64,000 nucleotides of DNA from an uncultured Acidobacteriaceae bacterium (GTDB lineage Bacteria > Acidobacteriota > Terriglobia > Terriglobales > Acidobacteriaceae). How positions within the stretch are numbered: position 1 is the first letter of the stretch; each line of letters begins with the position of its first letter. The DNA lies in assembly GCA_963819055.1 (NCBI GenBank), contig CAWFUT010000020.1, positions 7,561 to 71,560 of the forward strand. Direction: 5' to 3'. Shown in pieces: positions 54,882 to 63,266 of this stretch. Below the pieces are notes generated by a model. The model did not search any database and was not told where the DNA came from. It saw only the letters and a program-made list of their open reading frames with translations. The translations under genes were made by a program, and so were the position numbers.

Positions 54882-55427
54882 CACCTTCACATTTGGGAAT
54901 TTGAGGAAGTGCTGGAAGACTCCCTCCCCCGTAGCGGCCGTCGCGGACCGAGGTGATCCGAGGCGGCGAAAGAGTAGTAAGCCGGGCGTCCGGGCGACCT
55001 GGGTTCCCGGTTCACGTTGGGCCCTTGCAGCTGAATTCTCCTTCGGTTTCGGCACGCGGCAGCAGCGAAGCAGCTTGACCAAGGCAGTAGGAACGACAGG
55101 CCCCGCCCCATCGCGTTGCGCTGGGGTATCGACCGACGAAGTCATCGCCTAGACGATGACAACTGCGGTGCTCCTCAATAGCGTTTTCCCGGCTATTGAG
55201 GGACGTAGCTCCTTTCCAAGTCCGATCAACCCGTCGCGGCCCACCCCGCGTCGGAATAGTTTGCGGTGACATTTACCCCGGGGGCTTCTTCTCTGCGAGC
55301 AATACGCCAGCGAGAGAAGAGGCCCCCGACATCGTCTGCGGAAGAAAAGCAACGAGCAACGAGCTACTAGCAACAACGAATATTGGAACGCATTCATAAC
55401 GAACTCATAACTCCCCAGGAGCGACAC

Positions 55428-58400
55428 ATGGCCGACATCACCACCAGCACCACCACCACGACGAGCGCCGCCGTCACCAAGACGACGAAGAAGGCGCCCG
55501 GCCTGACTTTCAAGCGCTACTTCACCACTGCCGGCGTCTCGCCTTACGACGAGCTCGAGTGGGAACTCCGTCTGGCGCAGATCACCGACTCGCAGGGCGG
55601 CATCATCTTCGAGCAGAAAGATGTCGAGGTCCCCAAGGACTGGTCGATGACGGCGACCAACATTGTCGCCAGCAAATATCTGCACGGCCAGATCGGCACG
55701 CCTGAGCGCGAGAGCGGTGTGCGCGCCCTGGTCACCCGCGTGGCTGAGACCATTCGCGACTGGGGCATGGCCGGCGGCTACTTCCGCACGCCCGAAGACG
55801 CAGCCATCTTCCACGACGAGCTCGCACACCTGCTGGTGCAGCAGAAGGCGGCCTTCAATTCGCCGGTATGGTTCAACGTTGGCTGCGACCGCATCGAGCC
55901 TAACTCCGACGCGCAGAATTGGCACTGGAATCCGCAAGCCCAGCGTGTCGAGTACGGCGTTACCGGATACAAGACGCCGCAGTGTTCGGCCTGCTTCATC
56001 AACTCGGTACACGATTCGCTGGACTCCATCCTGACGCTGGCCAAGACCGAAGGCATGCTCTTCAAGTGGGGTTCGGGCACGGGCACCAACCTGTCGCCGC
56101 TGCGCTCCTCCACCGAGTCGCTCTCCGGGGGCGGTACCGCTTCCGGCCCGCTCAGCTTCATGAAAGGTTTCGACGCTTTTGCCGGCGTCATCAAGTCGGG
56201 CGGCAAGACGCGTCGCGCCGCCAAGATGGTCATCCTCAACATCGACCATCCCGACATCAACGAGTTCATCGAGTGCAAGCGTAAGGAAGAAGCCAAGGCC
56301 TGGGCGCTTATCGAGCAAGGCTATGACGGCAGCAGTCCCGATAGCGATGCCTACTCGTCCATCTTCTTCCAGAACGCCAACAACTCCGTGCGCGTGACCG
56401 ACGACTTCATGTACGCCGTGCTGCGCGACGCCGAGTTCCAGACGCACGCCGTCAAGGATGGCCGTCCCGTCCAGACCTTCAAGGCCAAGGATCTGCTGCA
56501 CAAGATTTCCGACGCCACCTGGCATTGCGGCGATCCCGGCATGCAGTACGACACCACGGTCAATCGCTGGCACACGTCGAAGAATACCGCTCGCATCAAC
56601 GCGTCGAATCCCTGCAGCGAGTACATGTTCCTCGACGACTCGGCCTGCAACCTGGCCAGCCTGAACCTGCTGAAGTTCGCGCCCAACGGGACGTTCGACG
56701 TGGAAGCCTATCGCCATGCCTGCGCCGTCATCATCACCGCGCAGGAGATCCTGGTCGACAACAGCGGCTATCCGACGCAGGCCATCGCGAAGAACTCGCA
56801 CGACTATCGTCCGCTCGGCATGGGCTATGCCAACCTGGGCGCGCTGCTTATGGCCTCGGGCCTGCCCTACGACTCCGATGCCGGACGCGACTACGCGGCC
56901 TGCGTGACGGCCATCATGTGCGGCGAAGCCTATCTACAGTCGTCGAAGATCGCCGAACTCTGCCAGCCGCTCTCGCCCGCGAGCGATACATGCATTCGGG
57001 AGTTGGCCGAAGTTTGGGGTGGAGAAGAGTCGGGTATGGAAGGCTCGGGTAGAGCTGGCCTTCAGTCCGATTTTTCTGGCCCCAGAGCCGGGCTTAAGCC
57101 CGGCGATACAAATGGGGAGGGCCTTGACGCGACCCTGAAGGGTCGCTCTACCAGTGATGCGACGAGCGGTCGCTCTACCAGTGATGCGATGAGCGGTCGC
57201 TCTACCAGTGATGCGACGAGCGGTCGCTCTACCAGTGATGCGACGAGCGGTCGCTCTACCGGTGACGCGACACGGAGCCACTCGCGCGGCGGCGCCTGTC
57301 CCGGCTGGTACATCAACCGCGAGCCTTTCCTCGACGTGATCCGCATGCATCGCGCGTCGGTGAACAACATCAACCGCAGCAACGTTCCGGCCGCGCTCTA
57401 CGAGGCCAGCAAGGACACCTGGGACGAAGCCCTGAAGCACGGCGAGAAGTTCGGCTACCGCAACGCGCAGGTCACGGTGCTGGCGCCTACGGGCACCATC
57501 GGCTTCATGATGGACTGCGACACCACCGGCATCGAGCCCGACCTGGCGCTGGTGAAATACAAGAAGCTGGTCGGCGGCGGCATGATCAAGATCGTCAACA
57601 ACACCGTGCCCACCGCGCTCTTCAAGCTGGGCTACACCTCCGACCAGACCAACGCCATCGTCAGCTACATCGACGCCACCGGCACCATTGAAGGCGCGCC
57701 CGCCATCAAGGACGAGCACCTGGCCGTCTTCGACTGCTCCTTCAAGCCCACCAAGGGCACGCGCACGATTCACTATCTCGGACACCTGCGCATGATGTCG
57801 GCGGCGCAGCCCTTCATCTCCGGCGCCATCTCCAAGACCATCAACATGCCGGAGAACGCCACGGTGGAAGAGATCAGCGAGGCCTACATCCAGGCCTGGA
57901 AGCTGGGACTGAAGGCCGTAGCCATCTACCGCGACGGATCGAAGAAGGCGCAGCCGCTAAGCTCCATGGGCTCGGCGACAGCGAAGTCGACGAAAGAAAA
58001 CTCTAGTGCCCCACTTACGGCGTCCGGTTTTGACGCCTTAAGTGGGAAACAGGAAGCGATCGACGAGCAGGCCGCGCCACCTAAGGCGATCCGTCATCGT
58101 CTGCCCGAGGAGCGGCTGTCGATCACGCACAAGTTCGCGGTCGGCGGACACGAAGGCTATCTCACCGTCGGCCTCTACAAGGACGGCATGCCGGGCGAGA
58201 TCTTCATCACCATGGCGAAGGAAGGCTCGACCGTCAGCGGCCTGATGGACAGCTTTGCCTGCGCCGTCTCCATCGGCTTGCAGCACGGCGTGCCTCTGAA
58301 GCTGTTGTGCGAGAAGTTCGCGCACACCCGCTTCGAGCCCTCGGGCTGGAGCGGCAACCAGGACATCGGTTACGCCAAGTCGATCATGGATTACATCTTC

Positions 58401-58772
58401 CGCTGGCTGCAGTTGCGCTTCCTTACCGGACAGCAGCAGGCGCTCTTCGACGGCCTGCGTCCGAAGTACGTAAACGCCCCGCCGCCGGGCACCCCGGATG
58501 AGAACGGCCAGAAGACCTTCGGCGATTTCGCGGAGAACGCGGCATCTTCTTCTGAATTGTCATCCCGAGCGGAGCGCAGCGTAGTCGAGGGAACTGCGGT
58601 TGCGGGCAGTGGCAGGAACCCCGGCACGGGCCACCACCACGCCAGTGACGCGCTGAAGGACCTGATCGACCTCGGCGACTCCCCCAGCTGCCACGTCTGC
58701 GGTGCCATCATGACCCGCAACGGCAGCTGCTACCGCTGCATGAGCTGCGGCAGCACGAGCGGGTGCTCGTAG
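55428..58772 (+). CDS. nrdJ: Class II (adenosylcobalamin-dependent) ribonucleotide reductase
   Basis: AGGAG precedes the ATG at 55428. The motifs are SPVWFNVG, ACFI, INASNPCSEYMFLDDSACNLASLNL and APTGTIGFMMDCDTTGIEP. A C-terminal Cys-rich tail is present: CHVCGAIMTRNGSCYRCMSCG. Confidence 0.95.
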   Translation: MADITTSTTTTTSAAVTKTTKKAPGLTFKRYFTTAGVSPYDELEWELRLAQITDSQGGIIFEQKDVEVPKDWSMTATNIVASKYLHGQIGTPERESGVRALVTRVAETIRDWGMAGGYFRTPEDAAIFHDELAHLLVQQKAAFNSPVWFNVGCDRIEPNSDAQNWHWNPQAQRVEYGVTGYKTPQCSACFINSVHDSLDSILTLAKTEGMLFKWGSGTGTNLSPLRSSTESLSGGGTASGPLSFMKGFDAFAGVIKSGGKTRRAAKMVILNIDHPDINEFIECKRKEEAKAWALIEQGYDGSSPDSDAYSSIFFQNANNSVRVTDDFMYAVLRDAEFQTHAVKDGRPVQTFKAKDLLHKISDATWHCGDPGMQYDTTVNRWHTSKNTARINASNPCSEYMFLDDSACNLASLNLLKFAPNGTFDVEAYRHACAVIITAQEILVDNSGYPTQAIAKNSHDYRPLGMGYANLGALLMASGLPYDSDAGRDYAACVTAIMCGEAYLQSSKIAELCQPLSPASDTCIRELAEVWGGEESGMEGSGRAGLQSDFSGPRAGLKPGDTNGEGLDATLKGRSTSDATSGRSTSDAMSGRSTSDATSGRSTSDATSGRSTGDATRSHSRGGACPGWYINREPFLDVIRMHRASVNNINRSNVPAALYEASKDTWDEALKHGEKFGYRNAQVTVLAPTGTIGFMMDCDTTGIEPDLALVKYKKLVGGGMIKIVNNTVPTALFKLGYTSDQTNAIVSYIDATGTIEGAPAIKDEHLAVFDCSFKPTKGTRTIHYLGHLRMMSAAQPFISGAISKTINMPENATVEEISEAYIQAWKLGLKAVAIYRDGSKKAQPLSSMGSATAKSTKENSSAPLTASGFDALSGKQEAIDEQAAPPKAIRHRLPEERLSITHKFAVGGHEGYLTVGLYKDGMPGEIFITMAKEGSTVSGLMDSFACAVSIGLQHGVPLKLLCEKFAHTRFEPSGWSGNQDIGYAKSIMDYIFRWLQLRFLTGQQQALFDGLRPKYVNAPPPGTPDENGQKTFGDFAENAASSSELSSRAERSVVEGTAVAGSGRNPGTGHHHASDALKDLIDLGDSPSCHVCGAIMTRNGSCYRCMSCGSTSGCS
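57141..57275 (+). repeat. Five in-frame 27-bp tandem repeats inside nrdJ
   Basis: ggtcgctctaccagtgatgcgacgagc occurs five times (the last copy is diverged). It encodes GRSTSDATS x5. Each unit contains a GTCGC...GCGAC hairpin. Confidence 0.9.
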
Positions 58773-58908
58773 GAAGTGACTAGTGGTCAGTGGCTAGTGG
58801 CTAGAAGTTCTGGCCGCTGGTCACTGACAACTGGTTCTTGTCATCCTGAGCGCAGCGAAGGATCTACTGTTCTGCACTCCACTTCAGTGCCCACCTTGAA
58901 TTAATTGC

Positions 58909-58937
58909 TTTACATCAATCAACCTTAGTCCTATAGT
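58909..58937 (+). promoter_or_regulatory. Candidate sigma70-type promoter for the island gene
   Basis: TTTACA-N17-TATAGT in AT-rich DNA, about 175 nt upstream of the ATG at 59112. Confidence 0.35.
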
Positions 58938-59111
58938 GTTGCCCGTTGGGAAACTAGTGCTACGGCATAGTCTGCGCTTTTGCGTTCGCTCCCTTTGGCA
59001 GCTCTCGTCGACACATCCCACGTATTTAGGCCAGCAGTAGTCCTCGCCGCTCTGAGCGGAATCCTTTATAGCGGCAACATGTACTCGGCCAATAGCAGAC
59101 GAGAGGGGAAT

Positions 59112-61529
59112 ATGTCTGATTTAATCACAGGGCGACCAACAGGTTTTTTCGCATATGCGTCGCTACCCCATGCAATCCCCGCAACTATTAAAAATGCGGT
59201 TGAAGACATCAATAAGACACAACGTGCATTCATAACTACTTGGGAGGACCTCGCGACAGGTGGTAAATACATCGTTCCGGAAATTTGCGAAGCGATTCAA
59301 GACGCCGACTTTTTCTGCGCAGACCTAACCACAATAAACCCAAACGTAATGTTCGAACTCGGTTTCGCGATCACCAGGGATAAGCGGATATGGTTGGTTA
59401 GGGACGATACCTATGTAGACTCGAAGAAGGAGTTTGAACAACTGCGTCTCTTAACTACCATAGGATATCGATCCTATACGAATTCGGAGCATATACTACG
59501 TTTCTTCTTTGCCGACTCTCCACACCAAACTCCAGAAGAAACAATATTTCGGAGCTCGATAGAACCGACCTTGGGACCTCACTTTGGAACGGAAGAACTA
59601 CTTTATTTGAGAAGCAAACACGATACGGAGGCCAGCCTCCGGGTAAGTCGGGTATTGAACGACCTAACCCCGCGGCCGATCGTTGACGATCCACGCGAAT
59701 CTGCAGTTCAGGCCTTGTATTGGTATGGGCAGACCGTCTATCGCTCGGGTGGTGTCGTCGCGCATTTCTTAAGTTCATCGAGAGAAGGAAGCCGCCTCAT
59801 CAACGCGAGATATGCGCTTGTTTGCGGGTTAGCGAGGGGTTTTGACATCCCGATACTTATGCTCACTGAGCAGTCCGAACTCCTCGCGCCAATGGACTAT
59901 CGCGATGAGATGAGGCATTACACGACGCCCGCTGAGGCAGGTCGCATAGTCCAACAGTGGCTCGAGCCTTTCCTCACGGCGCGGAAAGAGAACGCTGCTC
60001 GTAGCGCAGCATACAGCGGAGCAGTTAGGCTCGCGACCGAGCTTAAAGATTTCCATTTAACACTAGGAGAATATGTAGCTGAGAACGAAGCAGATCGGCT
60101 GCCTGCATATTTCGTAGAGACGACTGCTCATATGGATGTCATAAACGGTACGCAAACAATCTTCGTGGGAAGAAAGGGCACTGGCAAGAGCGCTACCCTC
60201 ATCGAAGCTGCATACGAGATCGGTAAAGATGCAACTACTTTAGTGTGCGTAATCAAACCTGTGGGATATGAGATGGACGGGTTGCTGCGTCTTTTTAATA
60301 ACTACAAGCTAAGTGATCACAAGGGCTATGTCATCGAGAGCTTATGGAAATACATGATCTACACCGAAATTGCTATTGCGGCCCGAGCCAAAATGACCGG
60401 AGATCAGTTGTGGCAATTATCAAGTCCAAGTTCTAAGGACCTAGTAGAGCTTCTTGACCATGAGAAGTCGGCGCTGACAGGAGACTTCACCGTGAGGCTG
60501 GAACGTGCCATCACTTCCTTGGCCGAAGTCAACTCAGATGCATCAGACTCGCAAATTCGACAGGGGATTTCGGAGGCGTTGCACAGCAATATTTTGGGAC
60601 GTTTACGTTCGGCGTTGATCGAGATTTTACGCCACAAGAGACAGGTGACGCTTCTTGTTGATAATTTAGACAAACCTTGGTTACGAAGCGCGAATTTTGG
60701 AGAGATTTCACAGTTCCTGCTTGGATTACTCACTGCTGCTGCAAGGGTTGGAGAAGAGCTCAAGTACGGTGAGAGAGGAAAGAGCGTCACGAGGTATAAC
60801 AGTGCAATATTCCTGAGAAGCGACATATTCGACTCTGTGGTACGTGTAGCACGAGAGCCGGATAAACTGTCGTATACTCGCTTGGCATGGGATGATTCCG
60901 AGATGCTCTTGAGAGTGATTGAGGAGCGTTACATAGCGTCACACGGTGCCGGAAGTGACCCGTCCACAATGTGGCGACAGTACTTCTGTGAACAGGTTCG
61001 GGGGGTGCCAACTCGGGAGTACCTAACCAGTCGCATTCTGCCGCGCCCCAGAGACGTAGTCTATTTTGTCAAGGCCGCTGTTTCGTTTGCAGTAAATCGG
61101 AAGCACAATGTTGTCGAGGAAAAGGATATTTTAGATGCAGAGAAACAATATTCGCAGTATGCATGGGATAGTATCCTCGTGGAAAACGGAATCAGCGTGC
61201 CGCAGTTGGAAAGTGTTCTTCTTGAGTTTGTTGGATGCACCCCGATCCTGAGCGCGTCGACAGTGCTCAACTTTGTGTCAAAGGCAGGAATAGAGGCTGA
61301 AAAGGTGGACGGGGTAGTCTCGCATCTCGTCTCTCTAACGTTCTTGGGTCTCGAAGTTGATGCCAACAGGTTTGTGTATTCCGACGAGGCAAAGCAGCTG
61401 AAGAAGAACACTATTCTGGCGGAGCGCTATGCCGGTCAGGCGCAGGCCGAAGCTAGGTGCCAAATCAATACTCCGTTTCGGGCTTACCTGGAAATAAAGG
61501 AAGAGTTTCAAAGCGAACAGCTATTTTAG
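59112..61529 (+). CDS. 805-aa protein with tandem TIR-like domains (CAP12/PycTIR-type) and a P-loop NTPase; candidate defence protein
   Basis: gagagggg precedes the ATG at 59112. Domain 1 reads FFAYASL..GKYIVPEICEAIQDADFFCADLTTINPNVMFELGFAITRDKRIWLV, which resembles the remembered motif ..dfAvvLlTpDD..RQNVifElGyFiGkLGR.rV (Glu82). Domain 2 has the same layout but lacks the Glu (..INARYALVCGLARGFDIPILML). The Walker A motif is GRKGTGKS (aa 353-360, nt 60168-60191). A Walker-B-like motif LLVDNLD is at aa 514-520. GC is about 43-45% on sampled lines, against about 65% in nrdJ. Confidence 0.7.
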   Translation: MSDLITGRPTGFFAYASLPHAIPATIKNAVEDINKTQRAFITTWEDLATGGKYIVPEICEAIQDADFFCADLTTINPNVMFELGFAITRDKRIWLVRDDTYVDSKKEFEQLRLLTTIGYRSYTNSEHILRFFFADSPHQTPEETIFRSSIEPTLGPHFGTEELLYLRSKHDTEASLRVSRVLNDLTPRPIVDDPRESAVQALYWYGQTVYRSGGVVAHFLSSSREGSRLINARYALVCGLARGFDIPILMLTEQSELLAPMDYRDEMRHYTTPAEAGRIVQQWLEPFLTARKENAARSAAYSGAVRLATELKDFHLTLGEYVAENEADRLPAYFVETTAHMDVINGTQTIFVGRKGTGKSATLIEAAYEIGKDATTLVCVIKPVGYEMDGLLRLFNNYKLSDHKGYVIESLWKYMIYTEIAIAARAKMTGDQLWQLSSPSSKDLVELLDHEKSALTGDFTVRLERAITSLAEVNSDASDSQIRQGISEALHSNILGRLRSALIEILRHKRQVTLLVDNLDKPWLRSANFGEISQFLLGLLTAAARVGEELKYGERGKSVTRYNSAIFLRSDIFDSVVRVAREPDKLSYTRLAWDDSEMLLRVIEERYIASHGAGSDPSTMWRQYFCEQVRGVPTREYLTSRILPRPRDVVYFVKAAVSFAVNRKHNVVEEKDILDAEKQYSQYAWDSILVENGISVPQLESVLLEFVGCTPILSASTVLNFVSKAGIEAEKVDGVVSHLVSLTFLGLEVDANRFVYSDEAKQLKKNTILAERYAGQAQAEARCQINTPFRAYLEIKEEFQSEQLF

Positions 61530-61578
61530 TCGGTCTGGGCGGGTGGCCCGGGTAAACGGCTGACCCTTATCCATATCT

Positions 61579-61778
61579 CCCACTCAAGACCAGAAGAAGG
61601 TCTTGAATGGGGCACCCGGGTTTTCGATTCCGTGGAGTAAAGGTAGGCCCGGTAAAGGGACGGATGCCCCGTTCAAGCAAAGCTTGAGCGGGTCTTTTTT
61701 TGTAAGGGTAGAGATCTTGGACTTGGGAAGAAAAACCCCCACTCAACGACAAAAGAGGTCGTTGAATGGGGCACCCGG
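61579..61778. repeat. Two direct 41-bp hairpin elements flanking a terminator
   Basis: cccactcaagaccagaagaaggtcttgaatggggcacccgg (61579-61619) and cccactcaacgacaaaagaggtcgttgaatggggcacccgg (61738-61778). The atggggcaccc core recurs at 18121 and, inverted, at 48378. Confidence 0.7.
61669..61701 (+). terminator. Rho-independent terminator downstream of the island gene
   Basis: CCGTTCAAGC-aaa-GCTTGAGCGG forms a 10-bp stem with one G-U pair. It is followed by GTCTTTTTTT. Confidence 0.65.
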
Positions 61779-61873
61779 CACCAGTTTTCTGTAACAACCC
61801 GTGCGATCTGGGAATTGCTTTTGTATTGCGCGCCGAGTTCCGCGAGACAGGTCAAGTCCAAAACTACTCTCCA

Positions 61874-62044
61874 TCAACTCAGTCCGTGTTCGGTACAAAA
61901 TATCTTCGCTTCGTCACTTCGCTTATCGTCGCCAGACCCGATGTTGTCGAAATCGATGATTTCAACTTCGTAACCGATCGGTACAGAGTCTCCTACTATA
62001 TAGGCGGTTCCACCACTTACCGTGACAAAAATCTTATTTGACAT
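61874..62044 (-). CDS. Possible 56-aa protein in low-GC DNA (below the ORF-track length cutoff)
   Basis: GAGGG lies 4 nt upstream of the ATG at 62044. The translation is MSNKIFVTVSGGTAYIVGDSVPIGYEVEIIDFDNIGSGDDKRSDEAKIFCTEHGLS, with the TGA at 61874-61876. The competing plus-strand ORF starts inside a repeat element. Confidence 0.35.
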   Translation of the reverse strand: MSNKIFVTVSGGTAYIVGDSVPIGYEVEIIDFDNIGSGDDKRSDEAKIFCTEHGLS

Positions 62045-62147
62045 TCAACCCTCGCGTTCGTACAGGTTGGAGATCGACAAAACGCACTTGGGCTATACCC
62101 GGCCCCGTGTTCCCTGGCCTTATGTCTGCCGGAGCCTACTAGACGAG

Positions 62148-62640
62148 ACACCAGTCCAAAGGACGGAACAATCGTAGCCCAGCACGCCAGTGCTGGGAAC
62201 GTGGTCATAAAATCTTCCGAGTCCCTTCAGGGACGACACAAAATGCCTGCCGTCCTATCGGACTCCGGGGATGGTTATGATCCGAATCCCAGCACTCACG
62301 TGCTGGGCTACGATTGTGACGCCCTTCGGGCTTCGACCCTGGTCCCCAGCACTCACGTGCTGGGCTACGATTGTGACGCCCTTCGGGCTTCGACCCTGGG
62401 TCCCCAGCACTCACGTGCTGGGCTACGATTGTGACGCCCTTCGGGCTTCGACCCCGATCCTCGTCCTGGTCCCCAGCACTCACGTGCTGGGCTACGATTG
62501 TGACGCCCTTCGGGCTCAAACCCGATCCCCGTCCTGGTCCCCAGCACTCACGTGCTGGGCTACGATTGTGGTGCCCTTCGGGCTCAAACCCGGTTCCAGC
62601 AAAACGATTGTGGCGCCCGTTGGGCTCGGCGTTGGCCTGC
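62148..62640. repeat. REP array left of the RAYT gene: one inverted unit, five direct units and a degenerate sixth
   Basis: The unit is cccagcactcacgtgctgggctacgattgtgacgcccttcgggc, with hairpin CCCAGCAC-tcac-GTGCTGGG. Units start at 62288, 62345, 62403, 62472 and 62540, a period of 57-69 bp. An inverted copy lies at 62148-62197. A second hairpin, GTCCCTtcaGGGAC, is at 62221-62234. Confidence 0.85.
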
Positions 62641-62737
62641 GAATGCGGTGACTGGTGCGCTCAATCGCCATGCTCAATCACGCGAGCCTGTGATGTCCAC
62701 CACGGCCTGAAATCGCCATTCTCGCGATACTCAACTC

Positions 62738-63175
62738 ATGGCCCACACCTATAGCTCAATCTTGTTTCACGTAGTCTTCGCGACAAAAGAACGCCGGGCG
62801 CTGATCCATGAGCCTGCGAAACTTTGGGCTTATGTCGCGGGTACCGCTCGCAAGCTTGGGTATGAACCTCTGGGGGTCGGCGGAACCGAGAATCATCTTC
62901 ATCTGTTGTTGCGATTGCCGGCGCACATCGCTGTTGCCGAAGCGGCGCAGAAGCTGAAAGCGAATTCTTCGCGGTGGCTCAAGGAAAATGGATCGTGGCT
63001 CGGATGGCAGCAAGGCTACGGAGCGTTTTCGGTCAGCCTATCTAATGTGGATACAGTGCGACGATACATTCAGAACCAGCCCGAGCATCATCGGCGGCAT
63101 AGTTTCGAAGAGGAGTTTATCGCGTTGTTGGTGCGATCAGGTATTACGTTTGAGAAGGACGAGGTCTTCGAGTAG
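62738..63175 (+). CDS. IS200/IS605-family Y1 (HUH) transposase homolog; REP-associated tyrosine transposase (RAYT)
   Basis: MAHTYSSILFHVVFATKERR.., the HUH motif ENHLHLLL, and the Tyr motif RRYIQNQPEHH. The protein is 145 aa and is flanked on both sides by the same REP sequence. Confidence 0.85.
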   Translation: MAHTYSSILFHVVFATKERRALIHEPAKLWAYVAGTARKLGYEPLGVGGTENHLHLLLRLPAHIAVAEAAQKLKANSSRWLKENGSWLGWQQGYGAFSVSLSNVDTVRRYIQNQPEHHRRHSFEEEFIALLVRSGITFEKDEVFE

Positions 63176-63218
63176 AGTGCCGTCCCTAAAGGGACTCCCA
63201 ATCGAAAATAATCATTTT

Positions 63219-63262
63219 CCCAGCACTCACGTGCTGGGCTAGGATTGTGGCGCCCTCCGGGC
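63219..63262. repeat. REP unit right of the RAYT gene
   Basis: cccagcactcacgtgctgggctaggattgtggcgccctccgggc is in the same orientation as the left array. It is preceded by the hairpin GTCCCTaaaGGGAC at 63183-63196. Confidence 0.8.
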
Positions 63263-63266
63263 TGAG

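Follow-up and report, generated by a model that had tools for sequence, protein, structure and literature searches.

A low-GC islet of an Acidobacteriaceae genome carries a candidate single-gene defence system, a predicted N-glycosidase fused to a Sll1717-family ATPase

The window analysed here is the whole stretch of 64,000 nucleotides of contig CAWFUT010000020.1 (assembly GCA_963819055.1), which belongs to an uncultured Acidobacteriaceae bacterium. From about 58.95 to 62.15 kb it contains a low-GC islet which is best explained as having a single conserved cargo, one self-contained conflict gene. The 805-aa product of this gene is probably a nucleoside triphosphatase (NTPase)-switched N-glycosidase acting in anti-phage defence or abortive infection, and the gene is regarded as a candidate single-gene system. 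The defence role of the protein, its trigger, its oligomerisation and its substrate are what we infer. The original prediction for this locus, made from the sequence alone, had described a tandem TIR-like/P-loop NTPase protein. The features of the gene, with positions numbered along the window, are the following.

58909..58937, plus strand: sigma-70-like promoter candidate TTTACA-17-TATAGT, 10/12 matches
59101..59109, plus strand: purine-rich Shine-Dalgarno-like GAGAGGGGA (direct reading), 2 nt 5' of the ATG
59112..61529, plus strand: 805-aa gene for an N-glycosidase-like domain, a second alpha/beta domain and a Sll1717-family ATPase
59133..59531, plus strand: domain 1 (residues ~8-140), TIR/NDT/DNPH1-class N-glycosidase fold with putative nucleophile E82
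59589..59981, plus strand: domain 2 (residues ~160-290), second alpha/beta domain, beta-alpha pattern in the AlphaFold2 model
60066..60089, plus strand: GEYVAENE motif at the start of the ATPase module, located at the extreme N-terminus in ATPase-only relatives
60147..60881, plus strand: P-loop NTPase core, defined by the NF047389 match, DSSP of the model, Foldseek and invariance
60168-60191, plus strand: Walker A GRKGTGKS
60651-60680, plus strand: Walker B LLVDNLDKPW, with D517 and D520
60807-60830, plus strand: sensor-1-like IFLRSDIF on the strand after Walker B
60882..61526, plus strand: helical lid with LPRPRD (sensor-2-like, 61038-61058), winged-helix-like domain and terminal helices
61668..61702, plus strand: intrinsic-terminator-like hairpin and T-run

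The open reading frame (ORF) 59112-61529 is a real gene. An alternative TTG start is available at 58980; the ATG at 59112 was preferred, as it is preceded at a distance of 2 nt by GAGAGGGGA and is also the point where the homologues start. The length and limits of the ORF given in the original prediction were borne out in this way, and all its motif positions were correct: DADFFCADLTTINPNVMFELGFAITRDKRIWLV at residues 64-96, E82 (nt 59355-59357), GRKGTGKS at residues 353-360, K359 (nt 60186-60188) and LLVDNLD at residues 514-520. The predicted terminator was also located 139 nt past the stop codon, with its hairpin and T-run at 61668-61692; the stem is 11 bp long, includes 7 GC pairs and precedes TCTTTTTTTG. 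The promoter proposed earlier is present, but sites of its class were not enriched over shuffled sequence (2 found in the region vs 3.0 +/- 1.7 expected), and it is therefore treated as a candidate and not as evidence.

Residue conservation was determined among 76 full-length relatives from many phyla. E82, G84, D262, E324, E326, K359, D517, D520, R569 and D571 were conserved in 76/76, E324 and E326 being the glutamates of the GEYVAENE motif. The invariance of the E82 site and of the NTPase residues indicates that selection acts on both the enzyme and the NTPase site. The AlphaFold2 model, built from 31 homologues, had a mean pLDDT of 81 at full length. Residues 1-302 modelled alone reached a pLDDT of 87.6 and a pTM of 0.89 with beta-alpha repeats, and this model indicates that two alpha/beta domains are packed as one N-terminal unit.

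Domain 1 was concluded, on the strength of profiles and the model, to belong most probably to the TIR/NDT ('DrHyd') N-glycosidase fold class, nearer to the nucleoside 2-deoxyribosyltransferases (NDT) and DNPH1 than to CAP12/PycTIR, with its nucleophile-type Glu intact. The Pfam model Nuc_deoxyrib_tr (PF05014) matched residues 57-102 of the window protein with E 8.5e-4 and 19.9 bits (cut-off 28.8). With CAP12-PCTIR_TIR (PF10137) the score was 12.4 bits (E 0.16), the family threshold of 24.7 not being reached, and the PADLOC PycTIR model gave a weak match (E 0.017). The Pfam threshold of TIR_2 was not reached by domain 1. Across 31 family members at E<=0.1, Nuc_deoxyrib_tr was detected in 31/31 (best 5.6e-6), CAP12-PCTIR_TIR in 9/31 and TIR_2 in 1/31. 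The gathering score of PF05014 was exceeded by the relative P0355 (31.7 bits), and some homologues carry a precomputed PF05014 hit.

In the comparison with the PDB, the profile of domain 1 matched NDT and DNPH1 chains (E 0.002-0.01). The profile alignment placed E82 on E88 of C. thermalis NDT (CtNDT), the residue altered in the deposited E88Q entry. The Foldseek matches of the N-terminal model in the NDT class were DNPH1 (TM 0.66-0.74, probability 1.00), the CMP N-glycosidase BcmB (0.72) and CtNDT (0.39-0.44). Those in the TIR class were the TIR domain of the plant NLR RPP1, the TIR-STING entries 7un8 and 9lmq, and TLR15. Single-domain superposition was better on NDT-class N-glycosidases than on TIR domains, and a viral structure library returned the same mixture of TIR and NDT classes. 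E82 lies in the motif NxNVxFELG, which was invariant (76/76). The TIR-like fold expected for this protein was accordingly found at the level of the TIR/NDT class. The closer likeness to CAP12/PycTIR, suggested by an NV.FELG-type motif similar to theirs, was retained for the fold class and the candidate catalytic Glu, but PF10137 failed at its threshold and NDT/DNPH1 proved to be closer.

Domain 2 is a second alpha/beta domain in which the Glu is missing; a weak alignment equates V237 with E82. The residues D193, E196, W204 and D262 of this domain are nearly or fully invariant, from which it follows that it is not a decayed spacer. A duplicate of domain 1 was considered and rejected, the hhalign probability being 0.04% and no PDB chain being matched by the profile of domain 2, so that a duplication lacks sequence support. 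The earlier description of tandem TIR-like domains thus stands for a second alpha/beta domain devoid of the Glu, and not for its relationship to TIR. Domain 2 may be a non-catalytic but conserved unit which, packed on domain 1 in the model, stands in for the partner subunit needed by NDT-type enzymes. The predicted packing (pTM 0.89) is compatible with such a second-subunit-like completion of the active site. Rare other architectures of the two-domain module were seen in P0355 (652 aa) and P0283 (857 aa); in one the module comes after a Wzz/GNVR-like region, and in the other it stands ahead of an SBP_bac_5 domain. Such proteins could be genuine fusions or gene-calling artefacts.

The ATPase module was assigned to the NCBIfam family NF047389, 'P-loop ATPase, Sll1717 family', with 262 bits against a cut-off of 75 (E 1.2e-77), over residues 318-763 and model positions 1-436 of 454. 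This was the one family-search match above threshold for the 805-aa protein, and it supports the P-loop NTPase that had been proposed. The Sll1717 motifs G..AE.E, GRxGxGK, DxLD, FLRSD and RPRD are present and were aligned with those of six other members from outside the window, all of which scored above the NF047389 cut-off. The architecture with its widely spaced Walker A and B motifs had not been recognised as a named system. The ATPase family is a curated one, and the spacing of ~155 residues is due to a helical insertion of ~120 residues (residues ~389-506) seen between the two motifs in the DSSP assignment of the model. Similarly, the C-terminal region of ~280 aa that had been called unassignable falls inside the NF047389 model, up to residue 763, and comprises an AAA+ lid and a winged helix. 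The protein ends ~50 residues past the winged helix.

With the whole model as the query, Foldseek ranked ORC/Cdc6 structures first (7tji_D, 2qby_A, 2v1u_A), followed by RPP1, BREX BrxC and RADAR RdrA. On direct reading, LLVDNLDKPW (DxLD) and IFLRSD (hhhRSD) appear to resemble the motifs of NACHT/NB-ARC proteins. The module is thus predicted to be an ORC/Cdc6-STAND-like NTPase of the Sll1717 family with a winged helix at its end. The sequence search for relatives of the ATPase with solved structures returned generic P-loop matches alone. No literature was found on the name Sll1717, and with PF24389 or 'ORC-CDC6-like' a BREX survey was the only paper obtained.

In the proposed mechanism, the NTPase would keep the enzyme module inactive. 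With the helical insertion or the winged helix acting as the sensor, a phage-derived cue would lead to nucleotide-dependent oligomerisation. The gathering of the N-terminal modules in the oligomer would switch on the cleavage of the N-glycosidic bond in NAD(P)+ or a (deoxy)nucleotide, an essential pool would be depleted and the infection would abort. The NAD-degrading effector with an NTPase switch, as envisaged originally, is supported in its effector-plus-switch plan and in the gene standing alone; NAD is now one of two live substrates, because the NDT/DNPH1 match is more consistent than the CAP12 match. Defence effectors of the NDT superfamily are able to drain the NAD(P)+ or nucleotide pool (PMC12673091; bioRxiv 10.64898/2025.12.03.692087). 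By analogy with the Retron-Eco1 N-glycosidase effector, which hydrolyses NAD(P)+ (PMC12673091), and with DUF4062/Swarozyc, NAD(P)+ is a plausible substrate. A (deoxy)nucleotide is plausible by the closer likeness to DNPH1, BcmB and NDT and by analogy with the type VIII Thoeris effector ThsI, a 'CMP hydrolase' (bioRxiv 10.64898/2025.12.03.692087). A more specific version, in which the effector is DNPH1/CMP-hydrolase-like and not an NADase and destroys dNMPs, maybe including modified precursors peculiar to phages such as hm-dUMP or hm-dCMP, once the ORC-like ATPase senses phage DNA or protein, is unlikely as it stands. If true, it would mean a so far undescribed single-protein nucleotide-pool immunity based on the Sll1717 ATPase family, which has no prior link to defence.

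The protein family is broad and patchy. More than 120 full-length homologues with 47-66% identity were obtained from the protein database, nearly all named 'hypothetical'. Relatives were present in 230/185,579 genomes (one genome per species), i.e. about 0.1%, from Acidobacteriota, Poribacteria, Planctomycetota, Chloroflexota, Actinomycetota, Bacteroidota, Bacillota, Gemmatimonadota and others, and from one archaeon (a Methanofastidiosum metagenome-assembled genome, MAG). The N-terminal module formed 1082 clusters at 50% identity (235 at E<=1e-30), and since nearly all of these are ~790 aa long, the N-glycosidase-ATPase fusion is the standard form. The GC content of the gene was below that of its flanks in 73/73 loci with enough flank, with a mean difference of -8.7 points.

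No conserved partner gene was revealed by all-against-all clustering of 1230 neighbour ORFs, the best-shared family occurring in 7/81 loci. The median intergenic gaps were about 200-250 bp on either side, and operon-like arrangements were found upstream in 9/75 and downstream in 3/74 cases. The homologues do not lie in a conserved housekeeping context, a point on which the original prediction had been open to challenge. The neighbours of defence type were type I, IIG and ISP restriction-modification, Mrr, Hhe, SoFic/Fic, AbiV, AbiTii, RES, DUF4411 and PRTase-CE genes, and those of mobile elements were Mu, DDE and insertion sequence (IS) transposases and integrases. In an acidobacterial MAG (locus L060) the homologue appears to be split into N-terminal and C-terminal parts ~3 kb apart (L060:6776-7008 and L060:10001-11200), which suggests disruption by an insertion.

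The module plan was compared with that of known systems. With the STAND/NLR-like defence proteins (Avs/AVAST, bNACHT, TIR-NLR) the window protein appears to share a single polypeptide with an N-terminal TIR/DrHyd-class enzyme, a P-loop NTPase, a lid and a winged helix, as well as the patchy, horizontally transferred distribution and the Foldseek match to RPP1. In contrast to them, it matches no Avs, NACHT or NB-ARC model of Pfam or PADLOC; its relatives gave weak sub-threshold nSTAND, NACHT or NB-ARC P-loop hits. Its ATPase belongs to the separate family NF047389 with ORC/Cdc6 as the best structural matches, and it has a ~120-aa insertion and a two-domain effector but no sensor arm of the TPR, LRR or WD40 type. 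Fusions of DrHyd or TIR domains with NACHT/iSTAND modules have been catalogued computationally (Kaur et al. 2020, Kibby et al. 2022; PMC7159879; bioRxiv 10.1101/2022.07.19.500537).

The NDT, DNPH1 (Rcl) and CMP N-glycosidase enzymes (BcmB, MilB) have the fold, the profile hits and the Glu of the ...ELG... helix, aligned with CtNDT E88, in common with the window protein. The latter differs from them by the ATPase fusion, by a degenerate second domain in place of a homodimer partner and by a mobile instead of a metabolic context. Weak hidden Markov model (HMM) hits, the Foldseek matches 7un8 and 9lmq and a conserved Glu after the central strand are shared with CAP12 (TIR-STING)/PycTIR, whereas a STING, SAVED or cNMP-binding domain is lacking. 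No cyclase operon (CD-NTase or pyrimidine cyclase) was found near the gene or as a conserved neighbour in the 81 loci. Retron-Eco1 and ThsI are controlled by the reverse transcriptase-msDNA complex or by a signal which the TIR product of an adjacent gene makes, while in the window protein a fused ATPase would exert the control and there is no partner; neither a reverse transcriptase with its non-coding RNA nor a ThsB TIR gene was detected in the window flanks or as a conserved neighbour across the loci.

DUF4062 TIR-like NADases adjoin NACHT ATPases, the bacterial Swarozyc/DUF4062 proteins are single-gene abortive-infection systems, and the eukaryotic DUF4062-NACHT proteins include TEP1, NWD1 and NPHP3 (bioRxiv 10.64898/2026.05.01.722283). 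These resemble the window protein in that a STAND ATPase is preceded by a TIR/NDT-like domain bearing a catalytic Glu, but the window protein has no DUF4062 Pfam hit at E<=1, and the auxiliary domains and the ATPase family are different. DS-41 (DefensePredictor 'AAA2') is a validated single-gene P-loop ATPase of ~500 aa that acts alone and has no N-glycosidase module. With the DS-41 model NF053860 the window protein scored 25.8 bits against a cut-off of 370, in the P-loop region only, and the Sll1717 ATPases 25-54 bits; at scores so far under the cut-off the relationship is distant at best, and the window protein is not a member.

Several results weigh against an NTPase-switched defence enzyme. 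Domain 1 is sub-threshold for every Pfam model, and the Foldseek E-values of its single-domain matches are modest (1e-3 to 1e-2). Many of the immediate neighbours are ordinary metabolic genes, about 1/8 being recognisably of defence type in a rough raw count from the family tables, and the loci come mostly from MAG contigs. PADLOC 2023 has no model for the family, the PycTIR match being its lone hit. The Pfam scan and the model revealed no recognisable repeat-type sensor domain. Finally, most Sll1717-family ATPases are stand-alone proteins of ~480 aa, so that the ATPase is maybe more than a switch.

The last point leads to an explanation in which the ATPase is the working part and the N-terminal module serves as its input by binding a nucleotide signal, and is not an effector that depletes a metabolite. 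The numerous family ATPases with no fused enzyme speak for it, and so does DS-41, a validated single-gene ATPase defence whose HMM weakly recognises the Sll1717 family. The strictly conserved polar residues of domain 2 suggest a ligand pocket, and TIR-related SLOG domains are known ligand sensors. However, the Glu and the NxNVxFELG motif are invariant in all 76 relatives, as is expected of a catalytic site, and the similarity to DS-41 is far beneath the 370-bit cut-off. This explanation is considered improbable.

The same ATPase was followed on plasmids, where tblastn returned 293 records. Full-length copies of the fusion were found on Bacillus mycoides p74, adjoining TnpB, and on an Ensifer megaplasmid, adjoining IS110 and toxin-antitoxin genes. 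An ATPase-only protein is located on a Nostoc plasmid amid HerA/NurA, DUF3696, HNH and DUF262 genes. The ATPases of E. coli and Klebsiella plasmids are ~690 aa long and carry a 220-aa C-terminal tail that shows a D...(D/E)xK pattern and matches PDDEXK_3 weakly (E 0.03-0.04). One of these is a passenger adjoining the resolvase of a Tn3-family element and others are on 110-kb Klebsiella phage-plasmids. The tailed ATPases are located as follows.

L082:5103-7199: tailed ATPase of E. coli p1303_109
L087:5064-7133: tailed ATPase of a Klebsiella plasmid
CP101896.1 and CP101890.1: phage records with tailed ATPases

The tailed proteins look like a candidate ATPase-nuclease defence gene of clinical plasmids. 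Among phage genomes, the two Klebsiella phage-plasmid ATPase-nuclease proteins were the only relatives obtained. The Sll1717 ATPase is thus a mobile module with alternative fusions. On B. anthracis pXO2 (L083:5016-6542) a stand-alone Sll1717-family ATPase is annotated as 'FunZ' and has a SIR2-family gene, an integrase and a helix-turn-helix gene as its neighbours; nothing relevant was found in the literature on 'FunZ'.

A second explanation, of comparably low probability, is a selfish or maintenance role for a mobile element in place of host defence, either as an addiction toxin or, in an integrated element, as an ORC/Cdc6-like DNA-binding initiator or partition factor. It would account for the ORC/Cdc6 structures as the top matches, for the winged helix, for the copies on plasmids, Tn3 elements and phage-plasmids and for the consistently low GC. 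A conserved enzyme active site is nevertheless unexpected in an initiator, the gene moves singly, and neither an integrase nor a replication gene nor any other part of an element's backbone is adjacent in the window or at most of the loci.

The composition of the islet agrees with a foreign origin of the gene. The GC content was 49.7% for positions 58870-62100, 49.3% for the ORF, 62.7% for the upstream nrdJ and 58.5% for the whole window. The sliding GC profile has a trough at ~58.8 to 62.1 kb, and the islet is the minimum among all 3.2-kb windows of the 64 kb, about 4 standard deviations under their mean. The third-codon-position GC (GC3) was 52% in the ORF vs 84% in nrdJ. The dip noted in the original prediction is therefore real, but its values of 43-45% for the island and 65% for nrdJ exaggerated it. 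The deviation itself, for which computed GC and codon usage had been named as a check, was strong in both GC and GC3. Horizontal acquisition of the islet, also proposed there, is supported by the composition, the patchy family and the GC below the flanks in relatives. The islet and its surroundings include the following features.

55383-58772: nrdJ, class II ribonucleotide reductase (RNR), separated from the 805-aa gene by a 339-bp gap
58933..58950, plus strand: remnant of a repetitive extragenic palindromic (REP) tail, ATAGTGTTGCCCGTTGGG, matching the 3' part of the REP unit; left islet edge, overlapping the -10-like hexamer
61874-62044, minus strand: 56-aa ORF inside the islet, convergent with the 805-aa gene, with its own terminator-like hairpin at 61771-61737 (minus strand)
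62153..62197, minus strand: first REP copy, inverted; right edge of the low-GC segment
62288-62332, 62345-62389, 62403-62447, 62472-62516, 62540-62584 and 63219-63263, plus strand: further REP copies
62738-63175: IS200-like Y1 transposase (RAYT), downstream of the islet
63488 to the end of the window: partial EEP-family ORF, downstream

The REP unit, CCCAGCACTCACGTGCTGGGCTACGATTGTG..., occurs in 7 copies from 62153 to 63263 that surround the RAYT gene. The 18-nt REP tail at 58933-58950 is the sole match in the 64 kb outside this cluster. The low-GC DNA between the REP sequences, ~58951-62152, had a GC content of 50.0%. As REP sequence is present on both sides of the low-GC DNA, an insertion into the REP cluster is proposed, and this suggests that the islet entered a REP cluster downstream of nrdJ. 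Of the neighbours named in the original prediction, the REP/RAYT elements and the EEP-family gene were recovered.

The REP copies scored 30.7-34.3 bits with the Rfam Acido-Lenti-1 RNA model RF01687, slightly short of the gathering score, which is 37, and here the motif listed by Rfam as an 'sRNA' acts like a REP/RAYT repeat element. Two 41-nt hairpin-bearing repeats, CCCACTCAA...TTGAATGGGGCACCCGG, are located in the islet at 61579-61619 and 61738-61778 and nowhere else in the window. One copy overlaps the minus-strand terminator-like hairpin, and a metagenome contig (L192) showed 77% identity across 122 nt of the repeat region. Directly past nrdJ, at 58836-58866, lies GTCATCCTGAGCGCAGCGAAGGATC, presumably akin to a short repeat common in Acidobacteria. 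The 56-aa ORF was considered as a partner or antitoxin and rejected; lacking both a Pfam match and a homologue among 80 related loci, it was left out of the system.

The position downstream of nrdJ raises the question of a housekeeping enzyme of nucleotide salvage or the dNTP pool, i.e. an enzyme of the NDT/DNPH1 type, regulated by its ATPase and linked in function to the class II RNR next to it. The gene follows nrdJ directly, and some members of the family are named 'nucleoside 2-deoxyribosyltransferase' by NCBI. In a Candidatus Limnocylindrales MAG (L049), a class II RNR (RNR barrel and TSCPD, L049:20-1432) likewise lies directly upstream of the homologue (L049:1708-4074). Such adjacency was found in 2 of about 75 loci, the window and the distantly related L049, and the latter case may be a coincidence or a weak tie to deoxynucleotide metabolism. 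The comparison set consisted of 120 metagenome loci with a like nrdJ 3' end or C-terminal motif, 50 of which extended for at least 2.5 kb downstream, and in 0/50 of these was a homologue of the 805-aa protein present. The nearest of the 120 loci had just 83% identity in nrdJ, and none shared the downstream RAYT or EEP genes. The absence of the gene after nrdJ in relatives, which had been put forward as a check, was hence obtained, but a precise empty site was not. With its own terminator, the 339-bp gap, the GC3 32 points under that of nrdJ and the occurrence in about 0.1% of species genomes, the gene is very unlikely to be part of such a housekeeping function. In nrdJ itself, a 27-nt unit repeated in tandem and in frame at 57141-57271 (4.9 copies, 96% matches) encodes SGRSTSDAT repeats, which are placed between the two parts of the ribonucleotide-reductase barrel domain.

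The least probable explanation is a Thoeris-like signal-generating enzyme, whose product would be a nucleotide second messenger acting on a separate effector. The TIR-class matches including the RPP1 TIR and TIR-STING speak for it, and the lack of a conserved neighbouring effector gene in 81 loci and the rarity of operon-like arrangements (upstream in 9/75, downstream in 3/74) speak against it.

The combination of a two-domain N-glycosidase module with a Sll1717-family ATPase appears to define an undescribed family, since PADLOC 2023 lacks a model, NCBIfam assigns no function to it and no paper on it was found. The design of an effector joined to a STAND-like switch is already well established, and the protein is a good experimental candidate and not a new principle. 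If the NTPase-switched defence enzyme is confirmed, a widespread family, with hundreds of 50%-identity clusters in at least ten phyla, would join the anti-phage repertoire. It would give a role to the so far function-less Sll1717 ATPases, also to those on enterobacterial plasmids, Tn3 elements and Klebsiella phage-plasmids. The protein would further become a test case for the control of a TIR/NDT-superfamily N-glycosidase by an NTPase, and for NAD+ versus the deoxynucleotide pool as the target.

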